Below are positions 8,762-46,811 of a stretch of DNA of 46,865 nt, piece after piece. Where the stretch lies: assembly GCA_948469065.1 (NCBI GenBank), contig CAOKKL010000001.1, forward strand, positions 1-46,865. Direction: 5' to 3'. The stretch is from an uncultured Mycoplasmatota bacterium. GTDB lineage: Bacteria; Bacillota_I; Bacilli_A; RF39; UBA660. Position numbers and translations under genes: made by a program. A model generated the notes under the pieces. It saw only the letters and a program-made list of their open reading frames with translations, ran no database searches and had not been told where the DNA came from. The stretch's first letter is position 1. Each line of letters starts with the position of its first letter.

Positions 8762-10588
<1,827 letters not shown>

Positions 10589-10633
10589 TAAGAGAGAAGA
10601 AAATTCTCTCTTCCTTAAGTTAGGAAAATAGAA

Positions 10634-12001
10634 ATGAAAAGACAACAAATTAAAGAAATTTTAGAACAATTATTATCTACAGGTGGAGATTTTGCAGAAG
10701 TTTTTTTAGAGGAAAAGCAAGTGAAATCATTTAACTTTATTGACCAAATGTTAGAAAAAGTATCCATGTTTCATGTTAATGGATATGGTCTTCGTTTAGC
10801 AAAAAAGGAAAATACTTATTATGCCTCTTCTAATGATTTTCGGAAAAAAAAGATCGAACAAATTATTTCGGAATTAAGAAAAAATGTTAATGATAAATCA
10901 ATTTATAAAAATATTTCATTAAAAAGAAGAAAAGATTATAAAAAAGAACAAATTTCTTCTTTTACGGATGAAGAAATTAAAACAAAGTTGAAACAATTAG
11001 ATGAAAAGATAAGAAAAAAAGAAGATAGAATTAGTCAAGTAAATCTTATCGTAGAAAATACAATTCAAAATGTAACAATTGCAAATCATACGGGTTTGTA
11101 TGTAAAAGAATATCGAGTATTGAGTCGCTTTTCAATCATTCTGTATTTAAAAGATCAAGAAAAATCTTCTCGAATTTCTTTTAGTAAAGGTGCTTCTTCT
11201 AATTTAGATTTTTTAAATACTATTGATTTTGACAAAGAAATTGATTGTTTAATCAAACAAGGTTTAGACAAATTGTATGCAAAACCATGTATTGGAAAAG
11301 AAATGCCTGTTATAATAGCACCTGGATTTGGAGCTGTTATATTTCATGAAGCATGTGGTCATGCCATGGAAGCTTCTAGTGTAGCCGAAAATTCTTCCGT
11401 CTTAGCGCAAGAACTAAATCATAAAATTGCCACTGATAAAGTTACTATTATTGATGATGGTAGCTTAAAAGATGAATGGGGAAGTAGTTTTATTGACGAT
11501 GAAGGAAAACCAACCCAAAAAAATATTTTAATAGAAAATGGTGTTTTAAAAAGATTTTTAATTGATGAATTAAATAATCGTAAAATGAAACAAACTACAA
11601 CGGGTTCTGGGAGAAGAGAAAGTTATTTATATGCTCCTACTTCTCGCATGAATAATACCTATTTAAAAGCTGGAAACAATACATTTGAACAAATGATTCA
11701 AGATATCAAATTAGGATTATATGCTGTAAAAATGGGTGGAGGGTCAGTTGCTACCGAAACGGGCGAATTTAATTTTGGAGTTGATTTGGGCTATATGATA
11801 AGAGATGGCAAAATTGCAGAATGTGTTACTTCTGCTAGTTTAATTGGTAATACAAAAGAAATATTACAAGAAGTAGAAATGGTCGGAAATGATTTTTCAC
11901 TTGGTACAGGATACTGTGGTTCTATTAGTGGTAGTGTCCCAGTAACGGTAGGTCAGCCAACCATTAAAATTGGTAAAATTTTAGTAGGTGGTGAAAAATG
12001 A
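10634..12001 (+). CDS. tldD: TldD-family metalloprotease
   Basis: HEACGH (HExxxH) lies in FHEACGHAME, and the C-terminal GxC motif occurs in LGTGYCGSISGSVPV. The fold is PmbA_TldD-like. Confidence 0.8.
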   Translation: MKRQQIKEILEQLLSTGGDFAEVFLEEKQVKSFNFIDQMLEKVSMFHVNGYGLRLAKKENTYYASSNDFRKKKIEQIISELRKNVNDKSIYKNISLKRRKDYKKEQISSFTDEEIKTKLKQLDEKIRKKEDRISQVNLIVENTIQNVTIANHTGLYVKEYRVLSRFSIILYLKDQEKSSRISFSKGASSNLDFLNTIDFDKEIDCLIKQGLDKLYAKPCIGKEMPVIIAPGFGAVIFHEACGHAMEASSVAENSSVLAQELNHKIATDKVTIIDDGSLKDEWGSSFIDDEGKPTQKNILIENGVLKRFLIDELNNRKMKQTTTGSGRRESYLYAPTSRMNNTYLKAGNNTFEQMIQDIKLGLYAVKMGGGSVATETGEFNFGVDLGYMIRDGKIAECVTSASLIGNTKEILQEVEMVGNDFSLGTGYCGSISGSVPVTVGQPTIKIGKILVGGEK

Positions 12002-13260
12002 AACAGAAAATCATCGAATTAGGAAAAAAAGCTAAAATTGATATCGAAATATTTGAAAAGACCCAAGAAAAAGTTGATATTAATACCATGAATGGGAAAG
12101 AAAAATTATTTCAAATTACAAATGTTACTTCATACCGAATTAAAGCCATCAAAAATGAAATTTCTATTGAATATATGACTGATAATTTAAAAAATCCAAA
12201 TTTAATCATTGATAATATTCAAAATATTTTTAAATTACAAGAAAATAAAAATAAAAATTTTCTTTGTCAAGGAAACTTAAAACATAAATTAGAACAAAAA
12301 GAAACATTAGATTATAATAAAATAAAACAAGATTTTTTGAATTTAATTGATTTAAAAAAAGAGTATCCTTTAATTTTAAATATTGAGACCACTTATTCCC
12401 ATTATATCAACCGATATGGGATTAATAATAAAGAATGCAGTTTAACGGATGAAACTTATTATCATGAGTATGGAGTAGCGATTACAATTGAAAAAATGGA
12501 TAAGAAAAAAGTATCGTTTATTAATTTTTATTCCGAAAATTATGACTTTAAATCCTTTTATCATTATGTTCGAGAAAAATTAGAATATTTAATTATAAAA
12601 CTAAATGGTGATAATTGTACCACAAAAAAATATAATATTATCTTAAAAAATAATGCTGTGGCACTTATTTTAAATACTTTTGCAAATTCTTTTCAAAGTA
12701 AAGAAATGGAACAAAATGTATCTATTCTTTCTGGAAAAAGAACTCAAAAAATATTTGGCGATAAAATAACAATCGTCGAAGACCCTAAAAATGGAATTGA
12801 AAAACGTTATTTTGATACCGAAGGAACCATTACTTATGAAAAAGAACTTGTAAAAAATGGAATATTTCAATTGGAAATTAATAATTTAGAATATGCAACG
12901 AAACAGAATGTAAAAGCAACGGGAAATGCTTATGGAGTCAACAATTTATATATAAAATCGGGCGATAATTCCGAACAGGAATTAATTCAAAAGCTTAATA
13001 ATGGTATTATTATTGATGAAATTTATGGATTACATTCTGGAATTGATAAAAAAAATGGAACCATTTCTCTTCATGCGGAAGGACTTGTTGTAGAAAATGG
13101 AAAAATAACAAACGGATTAGAAATGATAATATTATCTACCAATTTTTTTGAGTTGTTTTCAAATGTAATGGAAATAGGAAAAGAATATTCGCATAATTTA
13201 TTATGTGTTTCAGCCCCTTCTTTATTATTAAAAAATATAACAATTGTAGGAAAGAAGTGA
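11998..13260 (+). CDS. pmbA: PmbA/TldE-family protein (TldD partner)
   Basis: It is translationally coupled to tldD (ATGA overlap). It is of similar size and has no HExxxH motif. The C-terminal segment IDEIYGLHSGIDKKNGTISL is typical of the PmbA/TldD fold. Confidence 0.7.
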   Translation: MKQKIIELGKKAKIDIEIFEKTQEKVDINTMNGKEKLFQITNVTSYRIKAIKNEISIEYMTDNLKNPNLIIDNIQNIFKLQENKNKNFLCQGNLKHKLEQKETLDYNKIKQDFLNLIDLKKEYPLILNIETTYSHYINRYGINNKECSLTDETYYHEYGVAITIEKMDKKKVSFINFYSENYDFKSFYHYVREKLEYLIIKLNGDNCTTKKYNIILKNNAVALILNTFANSFQSKEMEQNVSILSGKRTQKIFGDKITIVEDPKNGIEKRYFDTEGTITYEKELVKNGIFQLEINNLEYATKQNVKATGNAYGVNNLYIKSGDNSEQELIQKLNNGIIIDEIYGLHSGIDKKNGTISLHAEGLVVENGKITNGLEMIILSTNFFELFSNVMEIGKEYSHNLLCVSAPSLLLKNITIVGKK

Positions 13261-13265
13261 AATAA

Positions 13266-14381
13266 ATGGAAAAAAAAGATTATTATGAAGTCTTAGGTGT
13301 TTCAAAATCTGCAACCGATGAAGAAATTAAACGATCATTTCGAAAATTAGCAAAACAATATCATCCTGATGTTAATAAAGAGCCAGGTGCAGAAGAAAAG
13401 TTTAAAGAAATTGGAGAAGCATATTCTGTTTTATCTGACCCCGAAAAAAGACGTCAATATGATCAGTTTGGACATGCAGCCTTCCAAAATGGTGGCGGAG
13501 GATTCTCTGGATTTAATGCTGAGGATTTTGATTTAGGAAGTATTTTTGATGATTTATTTGGAGGAGGATTCTCTGGATTTAGTAGTTTTGGAGGTTCATC
13601 TAGAAGAAATGCCAATCGACCTCAAAAAGGAAGAGACCGTCTAATAAGACTTGATTTATCTTTTCTAGAAGCTGTAAAAGGATGTAAAAAAGATATTCAA
13701 CTAGAATTAGACGAAATTTGTGAAAAATGTAATGGTGTTGGTGGATTTGGTGAAAAAATTTGTAAAACTTGTGACGGAAAAGGACGAGTAATTGAAGAAC
13801 AACGTAGTTTATTTGGTATTTTTCAAACAGAAACTACTTGTTCTACATGTGGAGGAAAAGGAAAAACTTACGAAGAAAAATGTAATTTATGTCGTGGATC
13901 TGGTCATATTAAAAAGAAAAAAGAAATTGAAATAACCATTCCAGAAGGAGTAGACAATGGCTATCAATTAAAAATTTCTGGAAAAGGTGAAGCTGGATAT
14001 CATGGTGGCCCAAATGGCGATATTTATATCGAATTTAAAGTTGGAAAAAGTCCTATTTTTGAAAGAGAAGAAGAAGATTTATTCCTTGAAGTACCAATTA
14101 CTTTTACAACGGCAGCTTTGGGAGGAAAAGTAGAAATTCCAACCATTGATAGTAATGTTATATTAGATGTTAAAGCAGGAACTCAAAGCGGTAGCAAAGT
14201 AAAATTAAAAGGAAAAGGTGTGAAAGTAGCCAATTCTTTACGCAAAGGGGATTTATATGTCATTTTTCATGTGATTACTCCAACAAAATTATCAAGAGAA
14301 CAAAAGAGATTGTTGGAAGAATTAGATAAGACAAATTTAGAAAATGACAGTGAAATAAAAAGCTTCAAAAAATATTTATAG
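13266..14381 (+). CDS. dnaJ: Co-chaperone DnaJ
   Basis: The J domain carries HPD (YHPDVN). A G/F-rich linker and four CxxCxGxG zinc-finger repeats follow. Confidence 0.97.
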
Positions 14382-31962: not shown

Positions 31963-32739
31963 ATGAACAGATTAAACGAATTATTACAAGAATTAGGAAT
32001 ATCAAAAGTACGTCTAGCTAAGTATTTAGGAGTATCTAGACAAATGGTTTATAATTATTTAGAGCTAGATGATATTAATAAATGGCCAAAAGAAAAAAAA
32101 TTGTTACTTTTTAAACTTTTAGAAATTGATGATGGAGAAGAAGGAACAATTAGTGGAATTAAAGTAACTACTGATTATTTAATGAGTGTAGAAAATCGTT
32201 TGAATCAAGGAGTAAAAAATAGTTCTGATTTAGATAGTTATTTTGATTTAAAAGGGCTTAACAAAGAAGATCAAACTCTTTTAGCAGATATCACATATCT
32301 TTTAAAAGAAAAATTATTAGATGATAGTAAGCATGATGAAAATCGCTATGCTGCACTGTATTTATATCATATGTTACAATCGATTGATAACGTTCCAGAA
32401 ATTAAATATATTTTTGGATATATGTCAAAAACAACAGGATTTACGGATCCAGAAGAATATAAATTTCAAGAAGATAAACAATTTATATTTGAAGGAATTT
32501 TATATTCTGCTCTAACATTATATAATAACGGAGGAGCAAGTCGAAGTAAATTAGCAGAGAGCCATCGACGTTTTGTTCAAGAAATAGAACAAAAAAATGA
32601 AGAAAAATTAACTCGTACTCAACAATTAAATACTATAAAAGTTCAAGCATTAAAAGAATTAAACTATACACAACTTAATGATACTAATGCCTCAGAGGTT
32701 TTAGAAAAAATGGCAGAGATTGAATCAAGAAAAGTTTAA
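31963..32739 (+). CDS. Helix-turn-helix (Xre-like N-terminus) protein of unknown function. It is the last gene before dif.
   Basis: The N-terminus LGISKVRLAKYLGVSRQMVYNYL is an HTH. A terminator hairpin AGAAAAGT-N8-ACTTTTCT plus a T-run lies at 32728-32756. Confidence 0.6.
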   Translation: MNRLNELLQELGISKVRLAKYLGVSRQMVYNYLELDDINKWPKEKKLLLFKLLEIDDGEEGTISGIKVTTDYLMSVENRLNQGVKNSSDLDSYFDLKGLNKEDQTLLADITYLLKEKLLDDSKHDENRYAALYLYHMLQSIDNVPEIKYIFGYMSKTTGFTDPEEYKFQEDKQFIFEGILYSALTLYNNGGASRSKLAESHRRFVQEIEQKNEEKLTRTQQLNTIKVQALKELNYTQLNDTNASEVLEKMAEIESRKV

Positions 32740-32809: not shown

Positions 32810-32837
32810 ATTTAACATAATGTATATTATGTTAACT
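32810..32837. other. dif: Chromosomal dif site (XerC/D recombination site), forming the left junction of the prophage
   Basis: The site is ATTTAACATAA-TGTATA-TTATGTTAACT. E. coli dif is GGTGCGCATAA-TGTATA-TTATGTTAAAT, and 20 nt are contiguous and identical. B. subtilis dif has the right arm TTATGTAAACT. Confidence 0.75.
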
Positions 32838-33422
32838 CTTTAATATATTGAATTCCAATCAACTTCTGTATGATATCTTTTACTACAGATATCTGCATTA
32901 TGTTCTTTTACTACATCTCTTAAATAACTGTAATATCTTATAAAATAGTTCCATATGCCATTTTGATTTGCATATTTTCCAACTTGTGACATTTTTACAT
33001 AATCTCCTTGTGAATGTATATATTCTTGTATACTCATTGCATGCTCACCACCTGGTATCTCATCTGTTACCAATTCTTTAAAACGTTTTAACAATTTATC
33101 TGAATTACTTTTTACATCTTCTACATCATATTGGTATTTATTATCATCTTTGAAATGAATCAAATATTTTAATGAACCGTTAAAACTCTTTTTAATGGGT
33201 TCTATCATGTTTTCTGCAACCCCTACTCTCTTTGATAGGGCAGATATGGTACATGCTGTTTTGAGCTTTATAACAAAGTGATAGTGTGCTTTCTTTAGTT
33301 CTCCTTCTTCTGTAACATCCTTATATAGATTACTTCCTTTTGTTCCAATAGATTAAACATTTGATTATCAAATTTTTCATCATCTTCATAAATTACACAT
33401 AAATAATTATAATTTCTTTTTT
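32825..33422. repeat. 598-bp direct repeat, copy A
   Basis: By my base-by-base reading it is identical to 38789-39386. It holds rep from codon 3 to the stop, plus 15 nt extending into the XerD arm. Confidence 0.93.
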
Positions 33423-33429
33423 CATTCAT
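32840..33429 (-). pseudogene. rep: Rolling-circle replication initiator, pMV158 RepB-like (Rep_2/HUH). This is the full-length copy, with an apparent -1 frame break.
   Basis: The ATG at 33429 follows RBS AGAGGAAAAG. Frame 0 reads MNEKRNYNYLCVIYEDDEKFDNQMFNLLEQKEVIYI.. and stops at 33295-33297. The -1 frame continues ...KDVTEEGELKKAHYHFVIKL (HUH) ...SLKYLIHFKDD (catalytic Tyr region) to 32840. Confidence 0.7.
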
Positions 33430-33468
33430 AAAACTTTTCCTCTCTTACATGAATTACATAAATTACAT

Positions 33469-33506
33469 ATAAATTGCATTATAGACGTAGCCCTTATGCA
33501 ATTTAT
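33469..33506 (-). promoter_or_regulatory. Candidate double-strand origin (dso) hairpin with a nick-site-like loop
   Basis: The stem is 11 bp, ATAAATTGCAT / ATGCAATTTAT, with a 16-nt loop. The minus-strand loop reads AAGGGCTACGTCTATA, which resembles the pMV158 nick region TACTACGAC. Iterons AATTACATA x2 and AATTGCAT lie at 33452-33479. Confidence 0.45.
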
Positions 33507-33615
33507 GACCTATACCATAATAATCACTTCCTTAATCACTAACGCGCTATCGCTTGTTGTACTTGTTAAAGCTCATAAACTAAAGTTTAATCGCTCTAAC
33601 AAGTTTCAATTAAAT

Positions 33616-33885
33616 CTAATTCCCTAAAAAATGTCCGATTACTTTCATCATTGCATCTTTGATTACGGAAAATCCATGCCATGAAATCACGAGTGAAATT
33701 AAGGCTACTACTACTGGTACATAAAAGAAATAAGATAAAAATGATATACCACCTTGTAACATGGTTGAAATCGTTGTTAAAACACTTGATATTTCACTAG
33801 GAAAGCTAGGTATTAATCCACCTAATATGGCAGAAATTACTCCTAATATATATAAAACTGCTTTTAAGAGTAAATATAATATCAC
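33616..33885 (-). CDS. Small 3-TM membrane protein (pVI-like minor coat/assembly candidate)
   Basis: The protein is 89 aa and almost entirely hydrophobic. It has a GTGA overlap with the upstream pIII-like gene. Confidence 0.55.
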   Translation of the reverse strand: MILYLLLKAVLYILGVISAILGGLIPSFPSEISSVLTTISTMLQGGISFLSYFFYVPVVVALISLVISWHGFSVIKDAMMKVIGHFLGN

Positions 33886-35174
33886 GGGTTATCCCTCCTA
33901 ATCTCATAAGAATCTTTTGATGTTTGAACACTATCATTTTTACTTAAAATACTAAAGAACTTCGCTGCTGCAAAATTGATGAATAAGCAAACTAACACAA
34001 TAGAAGTAACTGTTCTTATCGTTTCAATATGAGTCGATAAAATTACATTATCATTTAAACAAATTAACTGATTTTCCCAAAACGTCACTGAATCAAACAT
34101 GGAAGTTGCTCCTACTGTAAACTCTGGAAATTCAATACAGCCATTCGCATTTACTAGCCCTAATAAGCTTGTAAAAATAGTAATAAAGAAATTAATACTT
34201 TCTCCTACAAATCCAAAGTTTTCTGATAAATCTTTTGAATCATTGATGATTTCATATAATTGATTATCTGTGGGTACAAAGAGTGCTTTTAATGCCTCAA
34301 TTAATAAATTAACTAACTTTGACGGTAACTCTATAATTCCAGTAAAAATTCCTTTTAGCTTACACAGTAATCCGCAACTTTCACTTGAGGTATCACTACT
34401 ATTAGATGTTATGGAATTATTTAAATTGTCTAAACGATTATTAGTTTGTTGTTGATTTTTATTCATCGTATCTGTTTGATTAATAATTGCTGAAGAAATT
34501 GTATTAGAAGAATTATCACTTTTCTCTAGTGCGAAATATCTTCCAATTCCAACGGTAGTATCCCCTATTGCAAAGCCAGAAGAAGATGTAATATTAAAAA
34601 TAACAGCTGTAATATAATGAACGTCTCTTTGTAAAGGACAAGATACCGTTAAAATTCCAGAACCAATATTTCCAATAAATTGACATGGTAACATAGGGCC
34701 ATCTTGTTTTATAAATACGCTCGCTGAAAGAATTTTTTCATCAAATTGCATCGATTCTAAAATTGAACTACAACCGCCAAAAAGTGAACCAAAATGATTA
34801 AAAGGACCTTCACCCTCATAATATCCATCTTCATCAAGAATTATTAAATCGTTTTTACATGTTGTATTTAAAGAAACCGGATCAGAAGAAATATAAATAG
34901 GAGCTTCAAAAAAAAGATTAAAATAAACATAATCTGCATCAAAATCATAATCAATTCGAGTTGTTGGTTTAAATCCATTTCTAATAGAACTTATTCTAAC
35001 ATATTGTTGACTTTTATAAGTATTAGTTCCATTATCAAAAGTTAAAGCATGGTCACTCCATGTTCCGTCCATAACCCATTGTTTGGTATCATAATAGTAA
35101 TAATCTCCTGCACTTACATTTTGAATAAATAAAAAACCGCATATTATGATTAATAAATAAAATATCTTTTTCAT
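33882..35174 (-). CDS. Secreted 430-aa protein with a low-complexity linker and a C-terminal membrane anchor (pIII-like adsorption/minor coat candidate)
   Basis: The signal peptide is MKKIFYLLIIICGFLFIQNVSA. An N/S/T/Q-rich linker (SDNSSNTISSAIINQTDTMNKNQQQTNNRLDNLNNSITSNSSDTSSES) is followed by C-terminal TM helices. Confidence 0.6.
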   Translation of the reverse strand: MKKIFYLLIIICGFLFIQNVSAGDYYYYDTKQWVMDGTWSDHALTFDNGTNTYKSQQYVRISSIRNGFKPTTRIDYDFDADYVYFNLFFEAPIYISSDPVSLNTTCKNDLIILDEDGYYEGEGPFNHFGSLFGGCSSILESMQFDEKILSASVFIKQDGPMLPCQFIGNIGSGILTVSCPLQRDVHYITAVIFNITSSSGFAIGDTTVGIGRYFALEKSDNSSNTISSAIINQTDTMNKNQQQTNNRLDNLNNSITSNSSDTSSESCGLLCKLKGIFTGIIELPSKLVNLLIEALKALFVPTDNQLYEIINDSKDLSENFGFVGESINFFITIFTSLLGLVNANGCIEFPEFTVGATSMFDSVTFWENQLICLNDNVILSTHIETIRTVTSIVLVCLFINFAAAKFFSILSKNDSVQTSKDSYEIRRDNP

Positions 35175-35701
35175 AATCCAAATATTCTACAAACAATATA
35201 TAAGAATAGAAATATAAATAATCCGATTGAAATAGATATCAATATCATTAAAAATATATCTTTCTTTTTTGACTTCGCATAATAAAATGAATTTATTATC
35301 TTTAACTCACTATCATTTATTTTCACAAAAGTATAATCATTATAAGTATTATATTTATATAGCTCATCACATGTTGCTGTTGTATTACTAGCATTGGTTA
35401 CATCAAATTCTTTATTTGTTAGACATAAGTAATAATCTGTGTAAGTACTATATCCACTTTTGATATAATTTGATGATATTAAGTAATGATTATAATTACT
35501 TCGTTCATATATATCTTGTAAAGTAATGAGTGTACTTTCATTAATTGTTCGCAAATTATCATTGATTGTCATCGCTTTCGCGCAACGACTTGCGGCTAAA
35601 CCGATGACAACAAATACAATGATGTATCCCAATATGCGAAACAAAGAATGATAAATACTGGAAACTAAATCATGCATCATTTTATTTAATATACTTTTCA
35701 T
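35171..35701 (-). CDS. Bitopic membrane protein (N- and C-terminal TM). It may supply the membrane part of the assembly machinery.
   Basis: TM helices are at RILGYIIVFVVIGLAA and IFLMILISISIGLFIFLFLYIV. The gene overlaps both neighbours. Confidence 0.5.
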   Translation of the reverse strand: MKSILNKMMHDLVSSIYHSLFRILGYIIVFVVIGLAASRCAKAMTINDNLRTINESTLITLQDIYERSNYNHYLISSNYIKSGYSTYTDYYLCLTNKEFDVTNASNTTATCDELYKYNTYNDYTFVKINDSELKIINSFYYAKSKKKDIFLMILISISIGLFIFLFLYIVCRIFGL

Positions 35702-36410
35702 ATTGTTTATAAATCCCTTCTATTTTATCTTCTTTTAATGGTGTCCAAAATGGACTATCTTTTCCAAAATCAATTATTTGGTCCGTATCATACATTTGAT
35801 AATGTATTTTCCTTTTATGTGTATAAAAGCAACCAAATGCTTTCTTTCCTACTAATTCCTCTCTTTGCTTTTCGAAATCTCGAAAAACAACACAATGAGT
35901 TAAAAAATGTAAATAAGTATTACACGTAATAATCGTATTAATCTGTTCTCTCATTACTAATTGTAATCTTGAGAATACTTGACTTGTTAAAATGAATACT
36001 CTTTGCTGTTTTCGATTCTGTGAAATTACTTGAAACATATTGACATCTGCATTTTTACTTTCTAATGAGTTAAATAAAATATGTGCCTCATCAATCAAAA
36101 ATATGGTCGGTTTATTATAATTAAAGAATAACTGATAATATTTTTCAAAACGTATAATATTTTCTTTTGGTATATTTTTTAGTATATTTGTATTAATATT
36201 TACATTTGTTACCAAATAAACATCTTTCCAATCTTGATAAATATTATTAATCAGTCTTACTGCTGAAATAGTTTTTCCACTACCCTGCTTTCCACAGAAA
36301 CAATATACTCCATGATATGGAAATCTTGTTTTATTCCATTCATGCAAATATTTTAAATGTGTTGGAAGCTCAAATAAATTGACTTCTCCTTTTAAATCTT
36401 TTCTACGCAC
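35682..36410 (-). CDS. Zot / pI-like phage assembly P-loop ATPase
   Basis: Walker A is CGKQGSGKT, Walker B is TIFLIDEAH, and SQNRKQQRVFILTSQ resembles the Zot-family R-H...Q segment. The start is GTG, preceded by GGAGTGA. Confidence 0.78.
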   Translation of the reverse strand: MRRKDLKGEVNLFELPTHLKYLHEWNKTRFPYHGVYCFCGKQGSGKTISAVRLINNIYQDWKDVYLVTNVNINTNILKNIPKENIIRFEKYYQLFFNYNKPTIFLIDEAHILFNSLESKNADVNMFQVISQNRKQQRVFILTSQVFSRLQLVMREQINTIITCNTYLHFLTHCVVFRDFEKQREELVGKKAFGCFYTHKRKIHYQMYDTDQIIDFGKDSPFWTPLKEDKIEGIYKQYEKYIK

Positions 36411-36538
36411 TCATCATCACTCCAAAAATCTTTATCAATACATTTGATTTTTTCTTCTAAGTCTTTCATTTCTTTTAGAAGTTTCATAGCTTGATAATTA
36501 CAAAAAAGACCCATGATAATCAATAAAAAATTATTCAT
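36392..36538 (-). CDS. 48-aa mini-protein (one N-terminal hydrophobic segment)
   Basis: The product is MNNFLLIIMGLFCNYQAMKLLKEMKDLEEKIKCIDKDFWSDDECVEKI*, with RBS AGGTGAG. It overlaps the Zot-like gene start. It is not in the ORF track because it is under 60 aa. Confidence 0.35.
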   Translation of the reverse strand: MNNFLLIIMGLFCNYQAMKLLKEMKDLEEKIKCIDKDFWSDDECVEKI

Positions 36539-36542
36539 CTAC

Positions 36543-36701
36543 TCACCTACTTCCAATATGTAATCCTTTTCCCGTAAAAGATGAGATTACCATATTAATT
36601 AACATTACTATCACGGATATAGTAAGTGCCAACAATCCTGATGTTACTAAAATTGGTTTTATCGATTCAAAATAAGCTAAATATAGATTTGTTATATCCA
36701 T
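36543..36701 (-). CDS. 52-aa single-TM mini-protein (pVII/pIX-like candidate)
   Basis: The product is MDITNLYLAYFESIKPILVTSGLLALTISVIVMLINMVISSFTGKGLHIGSR*, with RBS AAAGGGGTGA. Confidence 0.4.
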   Translation of the reverse strand: MDITNLYLAYFESIKPILVTSGLLALTISVIVMLINMVISSFTGKGLHIGSR

Positions 36702-36712
36702 TTAATCACCCC

Positions 36713-36751
36713 TTTAAAAAAAAATAAAAGGGGAAACCTAAGTTTCCCCTA
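36713..36751 (-). terminator. Strong rho-independent terminator immediately after the major coat gene
   Basis: The minus strand reads AGGGGAAAC-ttag-GTTTCCCCT followed by TTTTATTTTTTTTT. Confidence 0.75.
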
Positions 36752-36753
36752 GG

Positions 36754-36978
36754 CTAAACATGAAAACCATGTCCAGCAAAAGCACTTTGTAACATGGCAA
36801 TACCTTTTCTTGCTCCCCAATAGAACAAATAAAGTGTCAAACATGCTGCAATTACGATACCCAATACAGCAGCAATATTGGCAACGGTTAAGTTGTCAGT
36901 AAAAATTGCTAATACTGATTGAATACCACTTTTAACTGTATCAAAGTTAAAAGTAATTGTGGATGCTGTATCCGACAT
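36754..36978 (-). CDS. Major coat protein candidate (pVIII-like)
   Basis: The protein is 74 aa with an acidic/polar N-terminus and a TM helix IAAVLGIVIAACLTLYLFYWG, followed by ARKG. The RBS is AAGGGGG. It has the highest local G+C, and a terminator follows it, as in inoviruses. Confidence 0.6.
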   Translation of the reverse strand: MSDTASTITFNFDTVKSGIQSVLAIFTDNLTVANIAAVLGIVIAACLTLYLFYWGARKGIAMLQSAFAGHGFHV

Positions 36979-37098
36979 AAATAAACCCCCTTTTTTTTAT
37001 TCCTTTTTCCTTCATAGAAAGGAGATGAGAAAGCCAAGCACTAACACTTTCCTGGTATGATGAACCGTTTTCGTTTAATTCAATTTAAACGCACTTTG

Positions 37099-37356
37099 CT
37101 ATTTCCACCACTGTCGATGGTTTCTTTTTATATAAATCACTTTTTTCTTTTTTCCATACTTTAAGCGATTTATAGTCTTTTCTAATATTTGGATCACAAT
37201 TTCTTTCTTACTTTTCTTTTGATAAATAAGTGGTAATATTGCAATCAATTCTTCGTTAAATCCATTTACATATTCAATATTGGCATTCCAAGGAATATAA
37301 CCAATTCTAGTTTTAAAACATTTATGATTGTGACTATACCAAATCGATAATACCAT
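37099..37356 (-). CDS. Hypothetical basic 85-aa phage protein
   Basis: The ORF lies within the operon and overlaps the upstream gene by 23 nt. Confidence 0.4.
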   Translation of the reverse strand: MVLSIWYSHNHKCFKTRIGYIPWNANIEYVNGFNEELIAILPLIYQKKSKKEIVIQILEKTINRLKYGKKKKVIYIKRNHRQWWK

Positions 37357-37633
37357 TTTTGGTTACAATCTGTGTTAATTGTACAAATGGTTTTAACGGA
37401 TTTCTTGGATTATCTTTTGTTTCGATAATTCCAGTTATATTTTGTTGAATAATGTCTTCTGGAATTTTGTCCCATACATCAAACCCAGTAAAGAACATCG
37501 GTGCAACAATCGAACCTTTTATCTTATCCGATTTTGCCATTTTATCCGTTAGAACATAATCAACTCTTGTATAAGGTTCTTTTCCTTTTGGACTACACTT
37601 AGTAACCGTTAAAATTCTCATTTTTAATTCCAT
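37334..37633 (-). CDS. Hypothetical 99-aa phage protein. The ssDNA-binding (pV-like) role is suggested only by its size and position.
   Basis: RBS AAGGGGTGA. The gene sits in the early part of the operon. I recognised no motif. Confidence 0.4.
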   Translation of the reverse strand: MELKMRILTVTKCSPKGKEPYTRVDYVLTDKMAKSDKIKGSIVAPMFFTGFDVWDKIPEDIIQQNITGIIETKDNPRNPLKPFVQLTQIVTKNGIIDLV

Positions 37634-37812
37634 TTTCTTTCACCCCTTTCATCATAAATTTCAACTTTCATTTCTTGGATTCCTATTTCAATAAACTCTA
37701 TCAAAGACCTAATAAGACTATCTTTTCCATTTGTAATAATTTCATCACAATGTCCAGTTTCTAATTGAAACCATATTTTATATTTTTTCATTTCTCTTCC
37801 TCTCTTAGCCAT
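37624..37812 (-). CDS. Hypothetical 62-aa phage protein
   Basis: The ORF is translationally coupled to its neighbours. Confidence 0.4.
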   Translation of the reverse strand: MAKRGREMKKYKIWFQLETGHCDEIITNGKDSLIRSLIEFIEIGIQEMKVEIYDERGERKWN

Positions 37813-37895
37813 ATATGGCCATGTTCTTTTGTTTTTTCCATGTCTAAATAAAGACCACCTTTTTCATATAGGTAATATAAGTTCTCTATTGTCAT
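37788..37895 (-). CDS. 35-aa mini-ORF
   Basis: The product is MTIENLYYLYEKGGLYLDMEKTKEHGHIWLREEEK*. It is preceded by AGGAGATGTCAGA and has an ATGA overlap with the upstream mini-ORF. Confidence 0.3.
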   Translation of the reverse strand: MTIENLYYLYEKGGLYLDMEKTKEHGHIWLREEEK

Positions 37896-38038
37896 TCTGA
37901 CATCTCCTCTATTTGAGAATTAATAATTCTTATTGTTTTCATAATTGCCTCCGAATAAGAATAGTAATTTTTTTCTAAGCTTTTCGTTAAATATTTGATT
38001 AAGCCTGATTTTAACTTTTCTAGTTCTGTTTTTGTCAT
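37892..38038 (-). CDS. 48-aa mini-ORF, the first gene of the leftward phage operon
   Basis: The product is MTKTELEKLKSGLIKYLTKSLEKNYYSYSEAIMKTIRIINSQIEEMSE*. Its initiation region, AGGAGATGTCAGAATGACAA, is identical to that of the next ORF. Confidence 0.3.
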   Translation of the reverse strand: MTKTELEKLKSGLIKYLTKSLEKNYYSYSEAIMKTIRIINSQIEEMSE

Positions 38039-38055
38039 TCTGACATCTCCTTTTT

Positions 38056-38119
38056 ACAACTTATCTGTTGTTAAATTAATATTACAACACATCTGTTCAA
38101 TTGTCAACACTTTTGTTGT
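38056..38119. promoter_or_regulatory. Three operator-like 16-bp palindromes in the divergent switch region
   Basis: ACAAC-TTATCT-GTTGT (38056-38071), ACAAC-ACATCT-GTTCA (38084-38099) and TCAAC-ACTTTT-GTTGT (38104-38119). Confidence 0.45.
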
Positions 38120-38161
38120 AAAATATCGTATAAAATTTATATAAAAGAAATGAGGTGAATT

Positions 38162-38389
38162 ATGTATTATACTCAAAGATTACAATGGATAAGAGATTGT
38201 AAAAATATAACACAAAAACAAATAGCTGACGCTTTAGAAATAAAACAACAACAATATGCAAGATATGAAAAAGGTATAAACATAATGCCCATTACTTATT
38301 TACCAAAGATATGTAAATTTTTAAACGTGTCATCTGATTATATATTGGGATTAACAGATGAAATGAAAGAATTAAAAAAAGAAGACTAA
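38162..38389 (+). CDS. Xre-family HTH repressor (phage lysogeny/immunity regulator candidate)
   Basis: ITQKQIADALEIKQQQYARYEKG is an HTH_3 motif. The RBS is GAGGTGA. The gene is divergent from the structural operon. Hairpin GAAGACT-aatc-AGTCTTC lies at 38378-38395. Confidence 0.8.
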   Translation: MYYTQRLQWIRDCKNITQKQIADALEIKQQQYARYEKGINIMPITYLPKICKFLNVSSDYILGLTDEMKELKKED

Positions 38390-38475
38390 TCAGTCTTCTC
38401 TATAAATCTTTAGTTAAGCCGTAAGGTATCATTATAATCACCGATAATTATAGACGTAGGATTGGAGGTGAAATA

Positions 38476-38607
38476 ATGAGTAAAATTTTATCAAGTTTTA
38501 AAAATATTGTAATAGATTGTATACTAATCTATGCAGTCTTTGCATTATTTATTGGCTTTGATAAAGCTAATGAACTAGTTATGAATATCATTAACATGTT
38601 CATTTAA
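38476..38607 (+). CDS. 43-aa hydrophobic mini-ORF
   Basis: RBS GGAGGTGA. The product is MSKILSSFKNIVIDCILIYAVFALFIGFDKANELVMNIINMFI*. Confidence 0.3.
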   Translation: MSKILSSFKNIVIDCILIYAVFALFIGFDKANELVMNIINMFI

Positions 38608-38629
38608 GCCTTACGGCTTAATTAAGGAC

Positions 38630-38761
38630 TTATTCGTCCCAAAATTCTTCATCTAAATCACTAATTTTCAAGTTACCAATAATTTTATTATTTTTATCTA
38701 TTTTATCATTAATTTTATAAACACTATATCCTAATGTACATATTAATAAAAAATTTATCAC
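38630..38761 (-). CDS. 43-aa mini-ORF downstream of rep on the phage circle
   Basis: RBS GAAAGGAGA with a GTG start. The product is VINFLLICTLGYSVYKINDKIDKNNKIIGNLKISDLDEEFWDE*. It converges on hairpin TTAAGCC-ttac-GGCTTAA (38604-38621). Confidence 0.3.
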   Translation of the reverse strand: MINFLLICTLGYSVYKINDKIDKNNKIIGNLKISDLDEEFWDE

Positions 38762-38773
38762 TGTATTATCTCC

Positions 38774-38801
38774 TTTCACTTTTTCTTTTATTATGTTAAC
38801 T
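38774..38801. other. attP-like degenerate dif-type site at the unit-to-unit junction
   Basis: The site is TTTCACTTTTT-CTTTTA-TTATGTTAACT. Its right (XerD-type) arm is identical to that of the dif at 32810-32837, while the left arm and central region diverge. Identity between the two loci begins at the last two bases (TA) of the central region. Confidence 0.5.
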
Positions 38802-39386
38802 CTTTAATATATTGAATTCCAATCAACTTCTGTATGATATCTTTTACTACAGATATCTGCATTATGTTCTTTTACTACATCTCTTAAATAACTGTAATAT
38901 CTTATAAAATAGTTCCATATGCCATTTTGATTTGCATATTTTCCAACTTGTGACATTTTTACATAATCTCCTTGTGAATGTATATATTCTTGTATACTCA
39001 TTGCATGCTCACCACCTGGTATCTCATCTGTTACCAATTCTTTAAAACGTTTTAACAATTTATCTGAATTACTTTTTACATCTTCTACATCATATTGGTA
39101 TTTATTATCATCTTTGAAATGAATCAAATATTTTAATGAACCGTTAAAACTCTTTTTAATGGGTTCTATCATGTTTTCTGCAACCCCTACTCTCTTTGAT
39201 AGGGCAGATATGGTACATGCTGTTTTGAGCTTTATAACAAAGTGATAGTGTGCTTTCTTTAGTTCTCCTTCTTCTGTAACATCCTTATATAGATTACTTC
39301 CTTTTGTTCCAATAGATTAAACATTTGATTATCAAATTTTTCATCATCTTCATAAATTACACATAAATAATTATAATTTCTTTTTT
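38789..39386. repeat. 598-bp direct repeat, copy B
   Basis: It is identical to 32825-33422, with an offset of 5,964 bp. Confidence 0.93.
38804..39386 (-). pseudogene. rep: Second rep copy, lacking the start codon and promoter/origin
   Basis: It has the same sequence as copy A from codon 3 onward. Upstream it abuts the TAA stop of ORF 39385-39666 instead of the rep ATG. Confidence 0.7.
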
Positions 39387-39666
39387 ATTTAAATAAAATT
39401 TTATTAAAATTTACTTTATTTGCAATGTTATCTTTCGTACTTCTGATTCCTTGTGAATACATATCTATATAAAGATTATTTGAATCAATTTTTCCAGTTT
39501 TCACAATATAGTAATCAGAATACTGTTCTATAACTACTTCAATATGATCATCAAAATTCAAAATATAATAATTTTTGTTGAAGCTATATTGTAGCCAACA
39601 TGATATAAAATTAACTATAATAATTAACATAAAAATGATAATAAGTTGATATAAAAAATGAATCAA
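39385..39666 (-). CDS. Hypothetical 93-aa membrane-anchored protein
   Basis: It has an N-terminal TM helix (LIIIFMLIIIVNFISCW). Two of the three bases of its stop codon lie inside repeat copy B. Confidence 0.4.
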   Translation of the reverse strand: MIHFLYQLIIIFMLIIIVNFISCWLQYSFNKNYYILNFDDHIEVVIEQYSDYYIVKTGKIDSNNLYIDMYSQGIRSTKDNIANKVNFNKILFK

Positions 39667-39750
39667 ATAAGACGATATAGAAAAATTTAGATTAGACGCA
39701 TTGTCTTTCTTTTGCCCAATACTAAATATATATAAACATATAAATACTAT

Positions 39751-40170
39751 TTATAAAGTTTCGATAAATAATAATGTTATTGTTTTAAAATCATTTAATA
39801 TTACAAATAAAAAAATATAAATACTAAAAATAATGATTGTTAAATATATACAATTTTTCGAAAGAATCTTCGTTTTCTTTTTTCTTATTTTGCACCAAAC
39901 ATAAGAACATATTTGAATAATAGATTTTGTAAATAAAGTACATATTAAAAATACAAAATAAAGAAGCAATATAGAATAAATATTAAATTCAACTCGAAAT
40001 AAAGAATAATCAACTTGAAAATAAATACTTTTTAAATAATTTTGTAAACATTGTGATACACTAATTGCTGCTGTAAAAAAAGTAAAAAATATTGCAATTA
40101 ATTGCACAATAGTTGAAATGTTATTTTTTATTTTCTTCCATATCAATATATATAATTCTTTTTCTTGCAT
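39751..40170 (-). CDS. Hypothetical 139-aa polytopic membrane protein
   Basis: It has about 4 TM helices, is very AT-rich, and has RBS GGTGAG. Confidence 0.4.
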   Translation of the reverse strand: MQEKELYILIWKKIKNNISTIVQLIAIFFTFFTAAISVSQCLQNYLKSIYFQVDYSLFRVEFNIYSILLLYFVFLICTLFTKSIIQICSYVWCKIRKKKTKILSKNCIYLTIIIFSIYIFLFVILNDFKTITLLFIETL

Positions 40171-40211
40171 TTTAAACTCACCACGTTAATATTAACAAAA
40201 TGGATATTATA

Positions 40212-40967
40212 TTACAATATGAAATGATTTAAGATGATGAGCCCTACTCCTACTCCAAGTCCAAGCCAAATAAATTTATTTTCTTTATATTTTAATGCTT
40301 CTGGAAATAGTTTTTGAATAGAGAGAGTAATCATAATTCCTGCAACAAATAACAATACAATACTAATTAACGTGTTTGTAATATATTTTGATAAAAATAA
40401 AAATGCGAGAAAAGCTCCGAATGGTTCGGCTAATCCAGAAAGAAAAGTCTTTAAAATAGCGTCTTTTTTACTATTTGTTGCATAATATATGGGAACTGCA
40501 ATACTTATTCCTTCTGGAATATTGTGAAGCATAATAGCTATACCTAACTTTATTCCTAAATTCATATCTTGATAAGCACTCATAAATGTTGCAATTCCTT
40601 CTGGCAAATTATGAAGCATTAAGGCAAGCATAGATAAAATTCCTAATTTATATAAATTTTTTTGTGTAAGTGATTTTGCATTTATTTTTTGATTAAGCCA
40701 ATAAATCAAAATAATTCCAATTAAAAAAGAAAAACAACAAAGAAATATTCCTTTTGCTAGTTTGTAGTCGGTAATAATGTAAAACGTAGACTCAGGTATT
40801 AATTCTGTTATAGATACTCCAATCATAATTGCTAAAGACAAACTTAAACTAAAAGTAATAAATTTATTAATATTTTCTTTCTTCCAATGAAAAAATATAA
40901 CAAGTGCTCCTATTACTGTAGATAAACCAGCTATGGTTGAAACAAGAAATGCTCCTAATACATTCAT
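40212..40967 (-). CDS. zupT: ZIP-family zinc transporter ZupT
   Basis: HNLPEGIATF and HNIPEGISIAVP motifs are present, with 8 TM helices. Confidence 0.85.
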   Translation of the reverse strand: MNVLGAFLVSTIAGLSTVIGALVIFFHWKKENINKFITFSLSLSLAIMIGVSITELIPESTFYIITDYKLAKGIFLCCFSFLIGIILIYWLNQKINAKSLTQKNLYKLGILSMLALMLHNLPEGIATFMSAYQDMNLGIKLGIAIMLHNIPEGISIAVPIYYATNSKKDAILKTFLSGLAEPFGAFLAFLFLSKYITNTLISIVLLFVAGIMITLSIQKLFPEALKYKENKFIWLGLGVGVGLIILNHFIL

Positions 40968-41634: not shown

Positions 41635-41778
41635 ATGAGTAGAAATAATCAAAATCAAAACAATGCTCGTAATAACAATAACAGATCTAATAATACAAAT
41701 AGTAGAAATTCTAGAAATGAAAAAAATAACAATAATTCTAGAAATAGTAGATCTAATAAAAACGAACAAAGTCGTTAA
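41635..41778 (+). CDS. Unannotated 47-aa Asn/Arg/Ser-rich mini-protein
   Basis: RBS GGGAGGTAAAG is followed 4 nt later by ATG. The product is MSRNNQNQNNARNNNNRSNNTNSRNSRNEKNNNNSRNSRSNKNEQSR*. The ORF track shows only an antisense ORF here. Confidence 0.4.
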   Translation: MSRNNQNQNNARNNNNRSNNTNSRNSRNEKNNNNSRNSRSNKNEQSR

Positions 41779-41811: not shown

Positions 41812-42723
41812 TTAATTTTCTTCTTTTTTATTGCGAGGATGATAATCGTAATCTTTTTTTATTTTTTCATTTGATACGTGGGTATAAATTTGAGTTGTCG
41901 AAATATCACTATGTCCTAATAATTCTTGAACAACTCTTAAGTTTGCACCATTATTTAATAAATGAGTAGCAAAAGAATGACGTAATACATGTGGAGAAAC
42001 GTCTTTTTTAATATTCTTCTCATTACAAAGTGATTTTAATAGTTTAAAAAAGCCTTGACGAGATAGTTTTCCTTTACGATTATTAATAAAAAAATAATCA
42101 GAAGAGGAATTCTTCAAAAGTTTTGAACGATATTCTTCATAATAAAGAATAAGATATTTTTTAGAAATATTATTGATTGGAATTATCCTTGTTTTATTCC
42201 CTTTTCCAAGAACATGAACAAAATCTTCTTGAAAATCAATGTCTTGTATTTTTAAGTTTATTAATTCACTAATACGCATTCCTGTCGCATATAAAAGTTC
42301 TAACATAGCTTTATTTCGATAATCGTAAGAACTGCGAAGTTCTATATTTAAAAGAGTATCCACTTCACTAATTGATAAATATTTGGGAAGTTTTTTTGGA
42401 ATTTTTGGTCTTAGAATAAAATCACATGGATTTTCTTTTAAAATCCCCTCTTCGATTAAAAATTGATAATATGATTTTAAAACGGTTAAATAATGAGTTT
42501 TTGTGGTTGCATTTTTTTCTTCTAGTGTTTTTAAAAATTCTTCTAATATTTTAGCTGTACAAGTAATTGAAGTTTTTTTAACTTTATCTAAATAATTTTT
42601 AAAAATAAGTAAATTATAATAGTAAGATGAAATTGTATTTTTCGATAATTTGCGCTCAAATTGTAAATAATTTAAATATTGAATCATTTTTGATTCTAAT
42701 AAATCATTTTGAACATCTTTCAT
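41812..42723 (-). CDS. xerD: XerC/XerD-family tyrosine recombinase
   Basis: The N-terminal SAM-like domain reads (I)QYLNYLQFERKLSKNTISSYYYNL. The catalytic segments are ...ATGMRISEL..., HVLRHSFATHLL and LGHSDISTTQIYTHV. I chose start ATG 42723, behind AGGAAG. Confidence 0.85.
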   Translation of the reverse strand: MKDVQNDLLESKMIQYLNYLQFERKLSKNTISSYYYNLLIFKNYLDKVKKTSITCTAKILEEFLKTLEEKNATTKTHYLTVLKSYYQFLIEEGILKENPCDFILRPKIPKKLPKYLSISEVDTLLNIELRSSYDYRNKAMLELLYATGMRISELINLKIQDIDFQEDFVHVLGKGNKTRIIPINNISKKYLILYYEEYRSKLLKNSSSDYFFINNRKGKLSRQGFFKLLKSLCNEKNIKKDVSPHVLRHSFATHLLNNGANLRVVQELLGHSDISTTQIYTHVSNEKIKKDYDYHPRNKKEEN

Positions 42724-42810
42724 GTAAATCTTCCTTTTTCTTTTATTATAAAAAATGCTTGCTACTTTCGTCAAATAAAATGGTGTGTTATAATGAATAA
42801 GGTGACAAAT

Positions 42811-45902: not shown

Positions 45903-46811
45903 TTATTTTTTATAACGAATATTAATATCTACATCACCTTTTATTCCACTAATTACCCCATCACTACAAAGTTGCCAATATTCATAATCGCCTGTATAAT
46001 TTGTTTCTTTGGTATAATGAGCAAGCCATGTTTTATAGCTTGTAGGATACCATATTTGTTCTAAGTATGATTTACTACTATATAACATTCCTTCGTAACC
46101 AGCATTATTTATAACTTTTAAAAAGGCTTCCGACATATCAGATAATCCAAATAAACTTAAATGAAATTCATTGTAAAAAGACCAGTTTTCCCAGTCAAAA
46201 GCAATGGGTAAATCAACATCATAATCTTTAATTTGTTCTAAAACCCATTTGGCATCTTGCTCGGCTCTTAGAGTGCTATTTGCATAAGAATAATAATAAA
46301 TACCAACAGGAATTCCTACTTCATTTGCATTTGTAATATTTTGTATAAATTTTTTATCTAAAATATATTCTCCATCAATACCACTACTTGTACCTACACG
46401 TAAGATAACAAATTCAACGCCAGCATTTTTTAAAGCTTGATAATCCACATCACCTTGCCAATGAGAAATATCTAATCCCACTTCGGTGTTTTCGTTTTTA
46501 TAATTTTTTACAACTTCTAAAAAATCTGTACTTGTTTTTGGAGGATTTTGATTCGAAGAATTTTCGCCATTTGTTTTTTCTATAATATTTAATTTGAAAT
46601 GACGTCTTGTTTCATTTCCACTTGAGTCTTTGGCTACAAATTCCAAAGGATATTCTCCAATGGTATTCATATCATAAATTCCTTCTATAGAACAATTTGG
46701 ATACGCATCATAATTATCTGCACACATTATCTTATTTAAAAAATCATCGGAAGAACCTTGAACCATTGTATATTGTGTTTTTATCCAAACAATGGGTGGT
46801 TCTTTATCCAC
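45903..46811 (-). CDS. GH25 muramidase (lysozyme) with an N-terminal Ig-like domain
   Basis: GLDISHWQGDVDYQALKNAGVEFVILRVG, IPVGIYYYS and FDWE are present. The N-terminal ~80 aa resemble an Ig-like (DUF5011-type) domain. The start is GTG and no signal peptide is visible. Confidence 0.8.
   Translation of the reverse strand: MDKEPPIVWIKTQYTMVQGSSDDFLNKIMCADNYDAYPNCSIEGIYDMNTIGEYPLEFVAKDSSGNETRRHFKLNIIEKTNGENSSNQNPPKTSTDFLEVVKNYKNENTEVGLDISHWQGDVDYQALKNAGVEFVILRVGTSSGIDGEYILDKKFIQNITNANEVGIPVGIYYYSYANSTLRAEQDAKWVLEQIKDYDVDLPIAFDWENWSFYNEFHLSLFGLSDMSEAFLKVINNAGYEGMLYSSKSYLEQIWYPTSYKTWLAHYTKETNYTGDYEYWQLCSDGVISGIKGDVDINIRYKK

Follow-up and report, generated by a model that had tools for sequence, protein, structure and literature searches.

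Our results identify a 28-bp site at positions 32810-32837 of a 46,865-nt stretch of DNA (contig CAOKKL010000001.1, analyzed at its full length and hereafter called the window) that is very probably the chromosomal dif, or dimer-resolution site, of an uncultured gut Erysipelotrichaceae bacterium, with an integrase-less filamentous phage inserted at it. The proposal that this is dif, made in a first-pass annotation of the window, gains support from the architecture of the site, its similarity to two defined dif sites, its synteny in seven related lineages, the existence of phage-free sites among these, and the attachment of an inovirus at it. The site and its parts are as follows:

32810-32837, plus strand: dif site, ATTTAACATAATGTATATTATGTTAACT, composed of the left arm ATTTAACATAA, the center TGTATA, and the right arm TTATGTTAACT
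32810-32820: left arm (XerC-type position), ATTTAACATAA
32821-32826: central region, TGTATA
32827-32837: right arm (XerD-type), TTATGTTAACT

A dif is expected on any circular bacterial chromosome, and its recognition here is a sound but ordinary annotation of an expected type of feature, while the phage side of the finding is a lead of modest interest. Judging from the sequence, XerC/XerD-family tyrosine recombinases would bind the two 11-bp arms, and strand exchange at the edges of the 6-bp center TGTATA would resolve chromosome dimers.

The site compares closely with the two experimentally defined dif sites. It has 20 contiguous nucleotides (CATAATGTATATTATGTTAA) in common with E. coli dif (GGTGCGCATAATGTATATTATGTTAAAT, taken from the MG1655 record and identical to the seed in Kono 2011, PMC3025954), exactly as the first-pass annotation had claimed, and the two agree at 22 of 28 positions overall and at 10 of 11 in the right arm. 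The claim of 10 of 11 right-arm matches to B. subtilis dif is likewise correct against the seed given in Kono 2011 (ACTTCCTAGAATATATATTATGTAAACT; PMC3025954), with 21 of 28 positions matching over the whole site. The arms had further been described as a perfect 10-bp inverted repeat; such a repeat does exist (TTAACATAAT / ATTATGTTAA, at 32812-32821 and 32826-32835), but it is not the arms themselves, as it takes nine arm bases and one central base on each side, while the 11-bp arms pair at 10 of 11 positions (32811 and 32836 are unpaired). All six of the inner palindromic pairs (positions 7-12 with 17-22) are kept within the 11-6-11 architecture, complementarity of these positions being a dif criterion in Kono 2011 (PMC3025954). 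Further, the 28-mer is the sole match in the window with up to three mismatches allowed, matches were found in 0 of 100 dinucleotide-preserving shuffles, and it is also single in each of the 18-21-kb related loci examined.

To look beyond one strain, we collected homologues of the 258-aa helix-turn-helix (HTH) protein encoded to the left of the site, and fetched and inspected their contigs (handles of the form L037) for sites. In seven related lineages, an 11-6-11 site lies just 3' of the 258-aa gene and before a block of zupT, a xerD-like gene, and rarA. The corresponding landmarks in the window, followed by the orthologous sites, are:

31963-32739, plus strand: gene of the 258-aa HTH protein, at the end of the plus-strand block, conserved left neighbor of dif
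40212-40967, minus strand: ZIP-family zinc transporter gene (zupT), in the conserved block right of dif
41812-42774, minus strand: XerD-like tyrosine recombinase gene (303 aa in public calls; Phage_integrase, 178.9 bits)

L037: ATTTAACATAA-TATATC-TTATGTTAACT, followed by a related inovirus prophage and then a rep remnant of about 401 bp
L011/L033: GTTTAACATAA-TGTATA-TTATGTTAACT, inverted, with a rep remnant present and a prophage in L034
L047/L049: ATTTCATATAA-TATATA-TTATGTTAACT, with no adjoining phage genes
L048: ATTTCGTATAA-TATATA-TTATGTTAACT, with no adjoining phage genes
L050: ATTTCCGATAA-TGTATG-TTATGTTAACT, with an unidentified 179-aa open reading frame (ORF) separating the 258-aa gene from the site
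L041/L052-54: ATTTCGCTTAA-TATATA-TTATGTTAACT, with no adjoining phage genes

Across these lineages the right arm TTATGTTAACT is invariant, and the left arm and center vary. In XerCD dif sites it is the XerD-side arm that is most conserved, with left arm and center drifting, a pattern consistent with PMC3025954. With its near-palindromic left arm, the window species appears to stand at one end of a series of drift, and its site does not appear to be of another kind. The only match in a genome collection, L011, is a 65-kb contig of an uncultured Erysipelotrichaceae metagenome-assembled genome and represents a sister species (258-aa protein 93% identical), in which the inverted block spans L011:6461-7070 and L033:10859-11455; there, the rep remnant sits between the 258-aa gene and dif, and the L034 prophage is inserted in that inverted orientation.

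The recurrence of rep, the replication initiator gene of the inserted element, raises the alternative that the 28-mer is no host dif but a phage- or plasmid-borne sequence (an attachment site, rep terminator, or origin) that travels with rep. The 28-mer is always beside rep in the species of the window and in the two relatives closest to it; specifically, in the window, in L003, L006, and L021 (strains of the window species), in L011/L033, and in L037, it always adjoins the 3' end of rep or of its remnant, and in L011/L033 the inversion takes in site and rep jointly, as a single block. The more distant relatives tell otherwise: L041/L052 and L047-49 carry a complete 11-6-11 site at the same point of synteny, with no rep or phage gene nearby, so that at least two lineages (the L041/L052-54 and L047-49 loci) have no phage genes beside dif. 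The phage sequences themselves, at the far junction of the element (38774-38801) and in the free bajarodino virus 28, carry the right arm and part of the center but never the left arm, and an invariant right arm with a drifting left arm is the conservation pattern of XerCD dif. Given orthologous sites free of phage and a left arm missing from the phage junction, the 28-mer would not be phage sequence, and a phage origin for it, which we consider very improbable, appears largely refuted by the phage-free sites.

The inserted element lies against the right side of the center, and its features, together with the junctions that delimit it, are:

32825-38788, genes on the minus strand: integrated inovirus-like element without integrase (one repeat unit, 5,964 bp)
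32825-33422: direct repeat copy 1, 598 bp, comprising the last 2 bp of the dif center, the right arm, and nearly the whole of rep
38789-39386: direct repeat copy 2, the rep-bearing remnant, which adjoins dif in element-free strains
32840-33429, minus strand: rep, with a Rep_OBD / HUH rolling-circle initiator domain (PF01719, 24.0 bits, just under the cut-off)
33882-35174, minus strand: 430-aa secreted protein with a C-terminal membrane anchor, as read from the sequence
35682-36410, minus strand: Zot / pI-type morphogenesis ATPase, an inovirus hallmark (PF05707, 34.6 bits against a cut-off of 20.3)
36754-36978, minus strand: candidate for the major coat protein (74 aa), with basic residues after a single hydrophobic helix
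38162-38389, plus strand: Xre-type HTH repressor (phrog_8, 4.4e-16), divergent from the structural genes
38774-38801, plus strand: hybrid junction, the attP of the element, TTTCACTTTTT-CTTTTA-TTATGTTAACT
Deduced circular junction of the element: TTTCACTTTTTCTTT joined to TATTATGTTAACT, or, as also given, ...CACTTTTTCTTT joined to TATTATGTTAACT...

The first-pass annotation had placed the repeat boundary of a prophage, 32825, inside the 6-bp center, and this is right, 32825 being the fifth base of 32821-32826; the repeat, however, is not a short att duplication but a 598-bp perfect direct repeat, its copies identical at 598 of 598 positions and spaced 5,964 bp apart. The rep gene abuts the right arm of dif directly, and its product has distant similarity to the Rep proteins of rolling-circle replication (RCR) plasmids. 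The 430-aa protein, which had no family match in profile searches, is interpreted by position and topology as a pIII-like adsorption protein. No family match was returned for the 74-aa coat candidate in a profile search, and it has 82% nucleotide identity to the L037 prophage. The membrane ORFs of the element are small (52-89 aa), and searches of PHROGs and Pfam found no integrase or recombinase among its ORFs. Taken together, the element has a Zot protein, small membrane coat proteins, a rolling-circle rep (Rep_OBD), and nucleotide similarity to deposited Inoviridae, and its size fits the about 5-8 kb of an Inoviridae / Tubulavirales genome, the group in which these features place it; in IMG/VR, no relative was found by Zot, and only distant ones (30% identity) by Rep.

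Comparison among strains showed that this element comes and goes. Among public contigs that encode exactly the 258-aa protein of the window, L003 (99.4% identical) joins 32824 straight to 38789, with exactly one unit absent and the order dif, one 598-bp copy, right flank; L006 has the same element-free layout, with an intact 176-aa rep. The full layout was assembled independently in L021, where the repeat measures 608 bp, a 10-bp deletion having shortened it in the window and in L003. In seven Logan contigs the sequence breaks off exactly 30 nt past 32825, as results from a branch at that position in a k=31 assembly graph, and the 5,426 bp of L022 are accounted for by a unique part of 5,366 bp and two stretches of 30 nt. 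Set against the window and L021, L003 and L006 thus show the element to be polymorphic among near-identical strains and the 598 bp to be a remnant that stays beside dif: before the present insertion, dif was flanked by the rep-bearing remnant of an earlier copy, and the result is the 598-bp direct repeat. The deletion, CTGGTCATGT at 33313/33314 and 39277/39278, frameshifts rep in both window copies and in the single copy of L003, while rep is intact in L021 (both copies, 199 aa), L006, and L011. Both rep alleles occur with and without the prophage, and the copies within one strain always have the same allele, which suggests either exchange between the copies by recombination or assembly collapse. 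A similar arrangement occurs at L037:10971-17833, where a related 6.4-kb inovirus prophage is followed by a repeat of about 401 bp with the 3' portion of rep; there, the end of the phage has a small gene with a Dam domain, and the center of the attP, TATATC, is that of the host.

Insertion leaves an intact dif on the left of the element and a crippled hybrid site on the right (38774-38801). This hybrid has a perfect right arm, agrees with the dif center in its last 2 bp only, and has no left arm (4 of 11 positions). With a functional dif left in place, dimer resolution would be unaffected. The phage attP, which lies directly after rep, has nothing in common with dif but the right arm and the TA next to it. 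The element would thereby take dif as its attachment site in the manner of an IMEX, or integrative mobile element that exploits Xer. As the hybrid keeps the phage center CTTTTA and dif keeps the host center, the founding exchange would have taken place on the right-arm side of the center; specifically, founding integration would involve strand exchange at the right-arm (XerD-type) edge, with the Holliday junction then resolved by replication or by a second exchange. We looked for a folded single-strand attP of the CTX kind and found none, there being no second inverted half-site in the element and no supporting hairpin in folds of the junction DNA. The sequence ATTTAAATAA at the remnant boundary (39387) was weighed as a relic arm and is not significant in AT-rich DNA.

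How the present copy arrived is a separate matter. The site may be dif while the 5,964-bp element enters and leaves by RecA-dependent homologous recombination with the 598-bp remnant and not by Xer, a possibility to which we give appreciable but clearly minor weight. The repeat copies are 100% identical, and any crossover within them gives the observed product; L003 and L006 have the remnant without the element; the distribution of rep alleles, with and without the element and uniform within a strain, fits repeated recombination or gene conversion; and L037 repeats the layout of prophage plus remnant, with its repeat of about 401 bp. Even so, the remnant must itself stem from an earlier joining to the host left arm, at the edge between center and right arm, free relatives keep a perfect right arm beside rep, an arrangement intelligible only through the use of Xer, and the attP center of L037 equals the host center (TATATC), as expected for Xer-mediated exchange; further, the identity of the repeat copies may be partly an assembly effect of short-read metagenomes. 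Because the repeat spans 598 bp, the present crossover may fall anywhere in it, and only the older event, in which phage DNA was first joined to the left arm of the host, is placed at the right edge of the center. The element has no integrase of its own, is flanked by dif and by a dif-like hybrid, and has an attP that resembles dif; by these testable criteria it would be classed as an inovirus IMEX, Xer catalysis of its integration being presumed.

Free relatives of the element come from GenBank phage records of circular Inoviridae genomes from rodent feces, to which it has 68-77% nucleotide identity over parts. The Bajarodino viruses among them (PQ006156, PQ006158, PQ006162) resemble the element in this degree of identity across rep, zot, and the coat region and in having the same gene order, and differ in being free circular genomes with no host assigned. 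In bajarodino virus 28 (PQ006156.1, L044, circular, 4,902 nt), TTTCTAAGCAC-TGTATG-TTATGTTAACT overlaps the rep stop codon (1400-1440), so that the arrangement of rep stop, right arm, and center is that of the element: its right arm is perfect, there is no left arm, and the center matches TGTATA at 5 of 6 positions, the center of the element being CTTTTA in contrast. Its center and right arm are identical to those of the L050 dif, which points to an Erysipelotrichaceae host for this virus from deer-mouse feces. Bajarodino virus 33 (L045, PQ006162.1) has its own integrase and no half-dif; a half-dif in an integrase-less virus and none in an integrase-bearing one is the signature that would be expected of an IMEX family.

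Among known systems, the element is most readily set beside the IMEX phages of Vibrio and Xanthomonas (CTXphi, VGJphi, and the TLCphi satellite), which are likewise small, integrase-less, inovirus-like, and located at dif, which regenerate a functional dif and leave one hybrid site, and which are polymorphic between strains; the array of an element with a partial or older copy recalls the CTX-RS1 and TLC-CTX arrays. Unlike these, its host is a Gram-positive-lineage gut Erysipelotrichaceae, its rep is of the RCR-plasmid-like Rep_OBD type, and the folded single-strand attP of CTXphi was not found in it. The attP of TLCphi is without a proper XerD arm, and attP of the Xanthomonas/VGJ type consists of the XerC-side core. 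The attP of the element, which keeps the XerD-type arm and the adjoining center bases and has no other arm, is therefore the mirror image of both.

We tentatively suggest, as one of several possibilities and not the favored one, that this inovirus family of gut Erysipelotrichaceae comprises the first described IMEXs of the lineage, with an attP of the XerD arm only that mirrors the Vibrio and Xanthomonas types; in the literature searched, no paper was found on IMEXs in Firmicutes or on bajarodino viruses. If this is true, such an attP would imply that strands are exchanged on the XerD side or that a single Xer, the dif-linked one, carries out the exchange, and a phage-encoded activator might be needed, as XafT is for TLCphi. 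The layout of a prophage followed by a remnant (window, L021, L037) would supply a second copy of rep and the origin and thereby replicative escape, as in CTX-RS1 arrays, and repeated cycles might account for the inverted dif-plus-rep block of the sister species. Apart from this suggestion, the element would extend Xer-exploiting filamentous phages to a Gram-positive-lineage group, the half-dif attP ties host-less fecal bajarodino inoviruses to a probable host clade, and the attP design and the dif-linked xer offer leads on Xer control outside Proteobacteria. For the host, dif and the probable replichore junction serve as a firm anchor with which to assemble and orient genomes of this uncultured gut Erysipelotrichaceae clade.

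The recombinase that might act at the site is encoded close by. In the window, the XerD-like gene is about 3 kb from dif once the 5,964-bp element is subtracted, and all the related lineages examined have it on the right of dif, at about 1-6 kb and beside rarA, as in the following loci:

L041:12147-13013: XerD-like gene
L047:12702-13583: XerD-like gene
L052:12771-13652: XerD-like gene
L050:16251-17144: XerD-like gene

The protein scores 328.6 bits with the NCBI XerD model TIGR02225 (cut-off 329.6) and 291.9 with the XerC model (cut-off 335). Keeping xerD within a few kilobases of the site across a clade is unlike classical XerCD systems, where xer genes lie far from dif (PMC1914069), and the left arm in the window, drifted to a near-exact mirror of the right, likewise departs from XerCD/dif. 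In other respects the site follows E. coli dif and B. subtilis dif (CodV/RipX), with 28 bp, the 11-6-11 layout, an inner palindrome, and a nearly identical XerD arm, and follows XerCD/dif in general in lying where gene orientations converge and in having its XerD-side arm best conserved across relatives.

The departures raise the alternative of a single recombinase, the dif-linked XerD-like protein, acting on both arms as XerH does at difH, XerS at difSL, and archaeal XerA at its dif, in place of a pair of XerC and XerD. Both arms are XerD-arm-like, with 10 of 11 positions able to pair, xer is linked to dif (about 1-6 kb) in all lineages examined where classical XerCD is unlinked (PMC1914069), and the protein passes the archaeal XerA model (242 bits against a cut-off of 220); recombinase linkage and near-palindromic arms are traits of these single-recombinase systems. 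Relatives with the same right arm and a linked xer nevertheless have asymmetric left arms (ATTTCGCTTAA, ATTTCCGATAA), typical of two-recombinase sites and unlike single-recombinase systems, and the best NCBIfam equivalog match of the protein is XerD (328.6 bits), the XerS model lying far under its cut-off. Further, the site is a canonical 28-bp dif, unlike the 31-bp difSL and difH, and the gene is at least 1 kb away and not adjacent. We regard a single-recombinase system as unlikely here; by architecture, similarity, and conserved position the site is of the XerCD dif type, on which XerC and XerD, or perhaps the dif-linked protein by itself, would act.

The gene orientations around the site bear on whether it marks the replication terminus. 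We lengthened the right flank by 10 kb with contig L012 (to 55737), so that about 56 kb were inspected in all; the extension adds seven minus-strand genes and the rest of a GH25 gene cut by the window end. To the left, all 31 ORFs of at least 76 aa between 247 and 32739 are on the plus strand and are chromosomal core genes, with one 31-aa ORF on the minus strand in independent gene calls, as the first-pass annotation had it. Its statement that orientation becomes mixed past the prophage, with many minus-strand genes, also stands: over the 16 kb to the right of the inserted DNA (with L012) there are 12 minus and 5 plus genes, mixed at first and then uniformly minus, and the switch of coding strand at the site holds after the extension. 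From gene orientation and its conservation in relatives, the region of dif as the junction of two replichores is well supported, though not proven. Kono 2011 (PMC3025954) argues that a dif lies near the meeting point of replication forks, not necessarily at it, and gives a strong correlation between dif sites and the shift points of skew for 641 genomes.

Several observations weigh against this account of the site as dif at a replichore junction. First, GC skew is +0.18 in the left flank and -0.18 over 45.7-55.7 kb, and yet, read on the coding strand, it is +0.18 in the left genes, +0.15 in the minus genes on the right, and +0.18 in the plus genes on the right. Skew therefore follows the coding strand or transcription and provides no evidence for a terminus beyond gene orientation. 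Second, the sole visible Xer gene falls 1 bit under the NCBI XerD equivalog cut-off, and xerC and ftsK were not found within the 46.9-kb window. Third, the sister species (L011/L033) carries dif and the rep remnant inverted relative to the flanking genes. Finally, the exact 24-nt core is present in one of 185,579 GTDB species representatives, and the sequence as such is thus clade-specific.

The strand switch might instead be local, owing to operon layout or to the prophage, with no replichore junction and with dif away from the terminus. The flip in skew is fully accounted for by the coding strand, the stretch at 40-45 kb has plus genes and positive skew, and the inspected span is only about 56 kb. 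We nonetheless regard a local switch as highly unlikely, since the 32.7 kb on the left are uniformly plus and the last 10 kb on the right uniformly minus, the convergent layout around the site recurs in related lineages, and dif and skew shifts are correlated in 641 genomes (PMC3025954). GC skew was not accepted as separate support for the terminus, since plus and minus genes of the right flank have the same coding-strand skew, at third positions as at all positions, and skew plots for this clade would mostly reflect gene orientation. In the window extended with L012, the skew at third codon positions is only about +0.06.

A scan of metagenomes with a 22-nt core returned no further strains and two unrelated organisms, L031 and L032, without similarity to the window. 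Their sites (L031:4419-4446 and L032:1668-1695) are centered on TGTATA and have perfectly palindromic arms, TCGTAACATAA...TTATGTTACGA and TTATAACATAA...TTATGTTATAA, respectively; that of L031 lies between convergent gene blocks, and both are probably the dif of other taxa.

The flanks otherwise hold the genes of an AT-rich chromosome (GC content about 26%). On the left are genes for a histidine kinase, an ABC transporter, phospholipid synthesis, hrcA-grpE-dnaK, tldD/pmbA, dnaJ, and a MiaB-like enzyme, and further recD2, mutS, nusB, xseAB, spoIVB, and mnmA; the gene of the 258-aa HTH protein is the last of this flank before the site. Within the heat-shock operon hrcA-grpE-dnaK-dnaJ (8768-14381), the tldD/pmbA metallopeptidase pair (10634-13260) is located between dnaK and dnaJ. 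On the right, the order is a split 261-aa membrane gene, zupT, two CotF-like genes, the XerD-like gene, rarA, gpsA, and thiF. The membrane gene (39385-40170), which lies between the rep remnant and zupT, is split into ORFs of 93 and 139 aa in the window and of 113 and 152 aa in L011/L033, and is one 261-aa ORF in L003 and L021. A second, degenerate dif at 40190-40217 (TATTAACAAAA-TGGATA-TTATATTACAA) was considered and rejected, as it has 8 mismatches where chance gives about 13 matches at up to 9 mismatches per shuffle; this dif-like 28-mer falls exactly between the split membrane gene and zupT, in AT-rich DNA. Between the CotF-like genes and xer, a 47-aa ORF at 41635-41778 consists almost wholly of Asn, Arg, and Ser (MSRNNQNQNNARNNNNRSNN...) and appears among the gene calls of several related contigs, and the last ORF of the window (45903-46811) runs past the window end.

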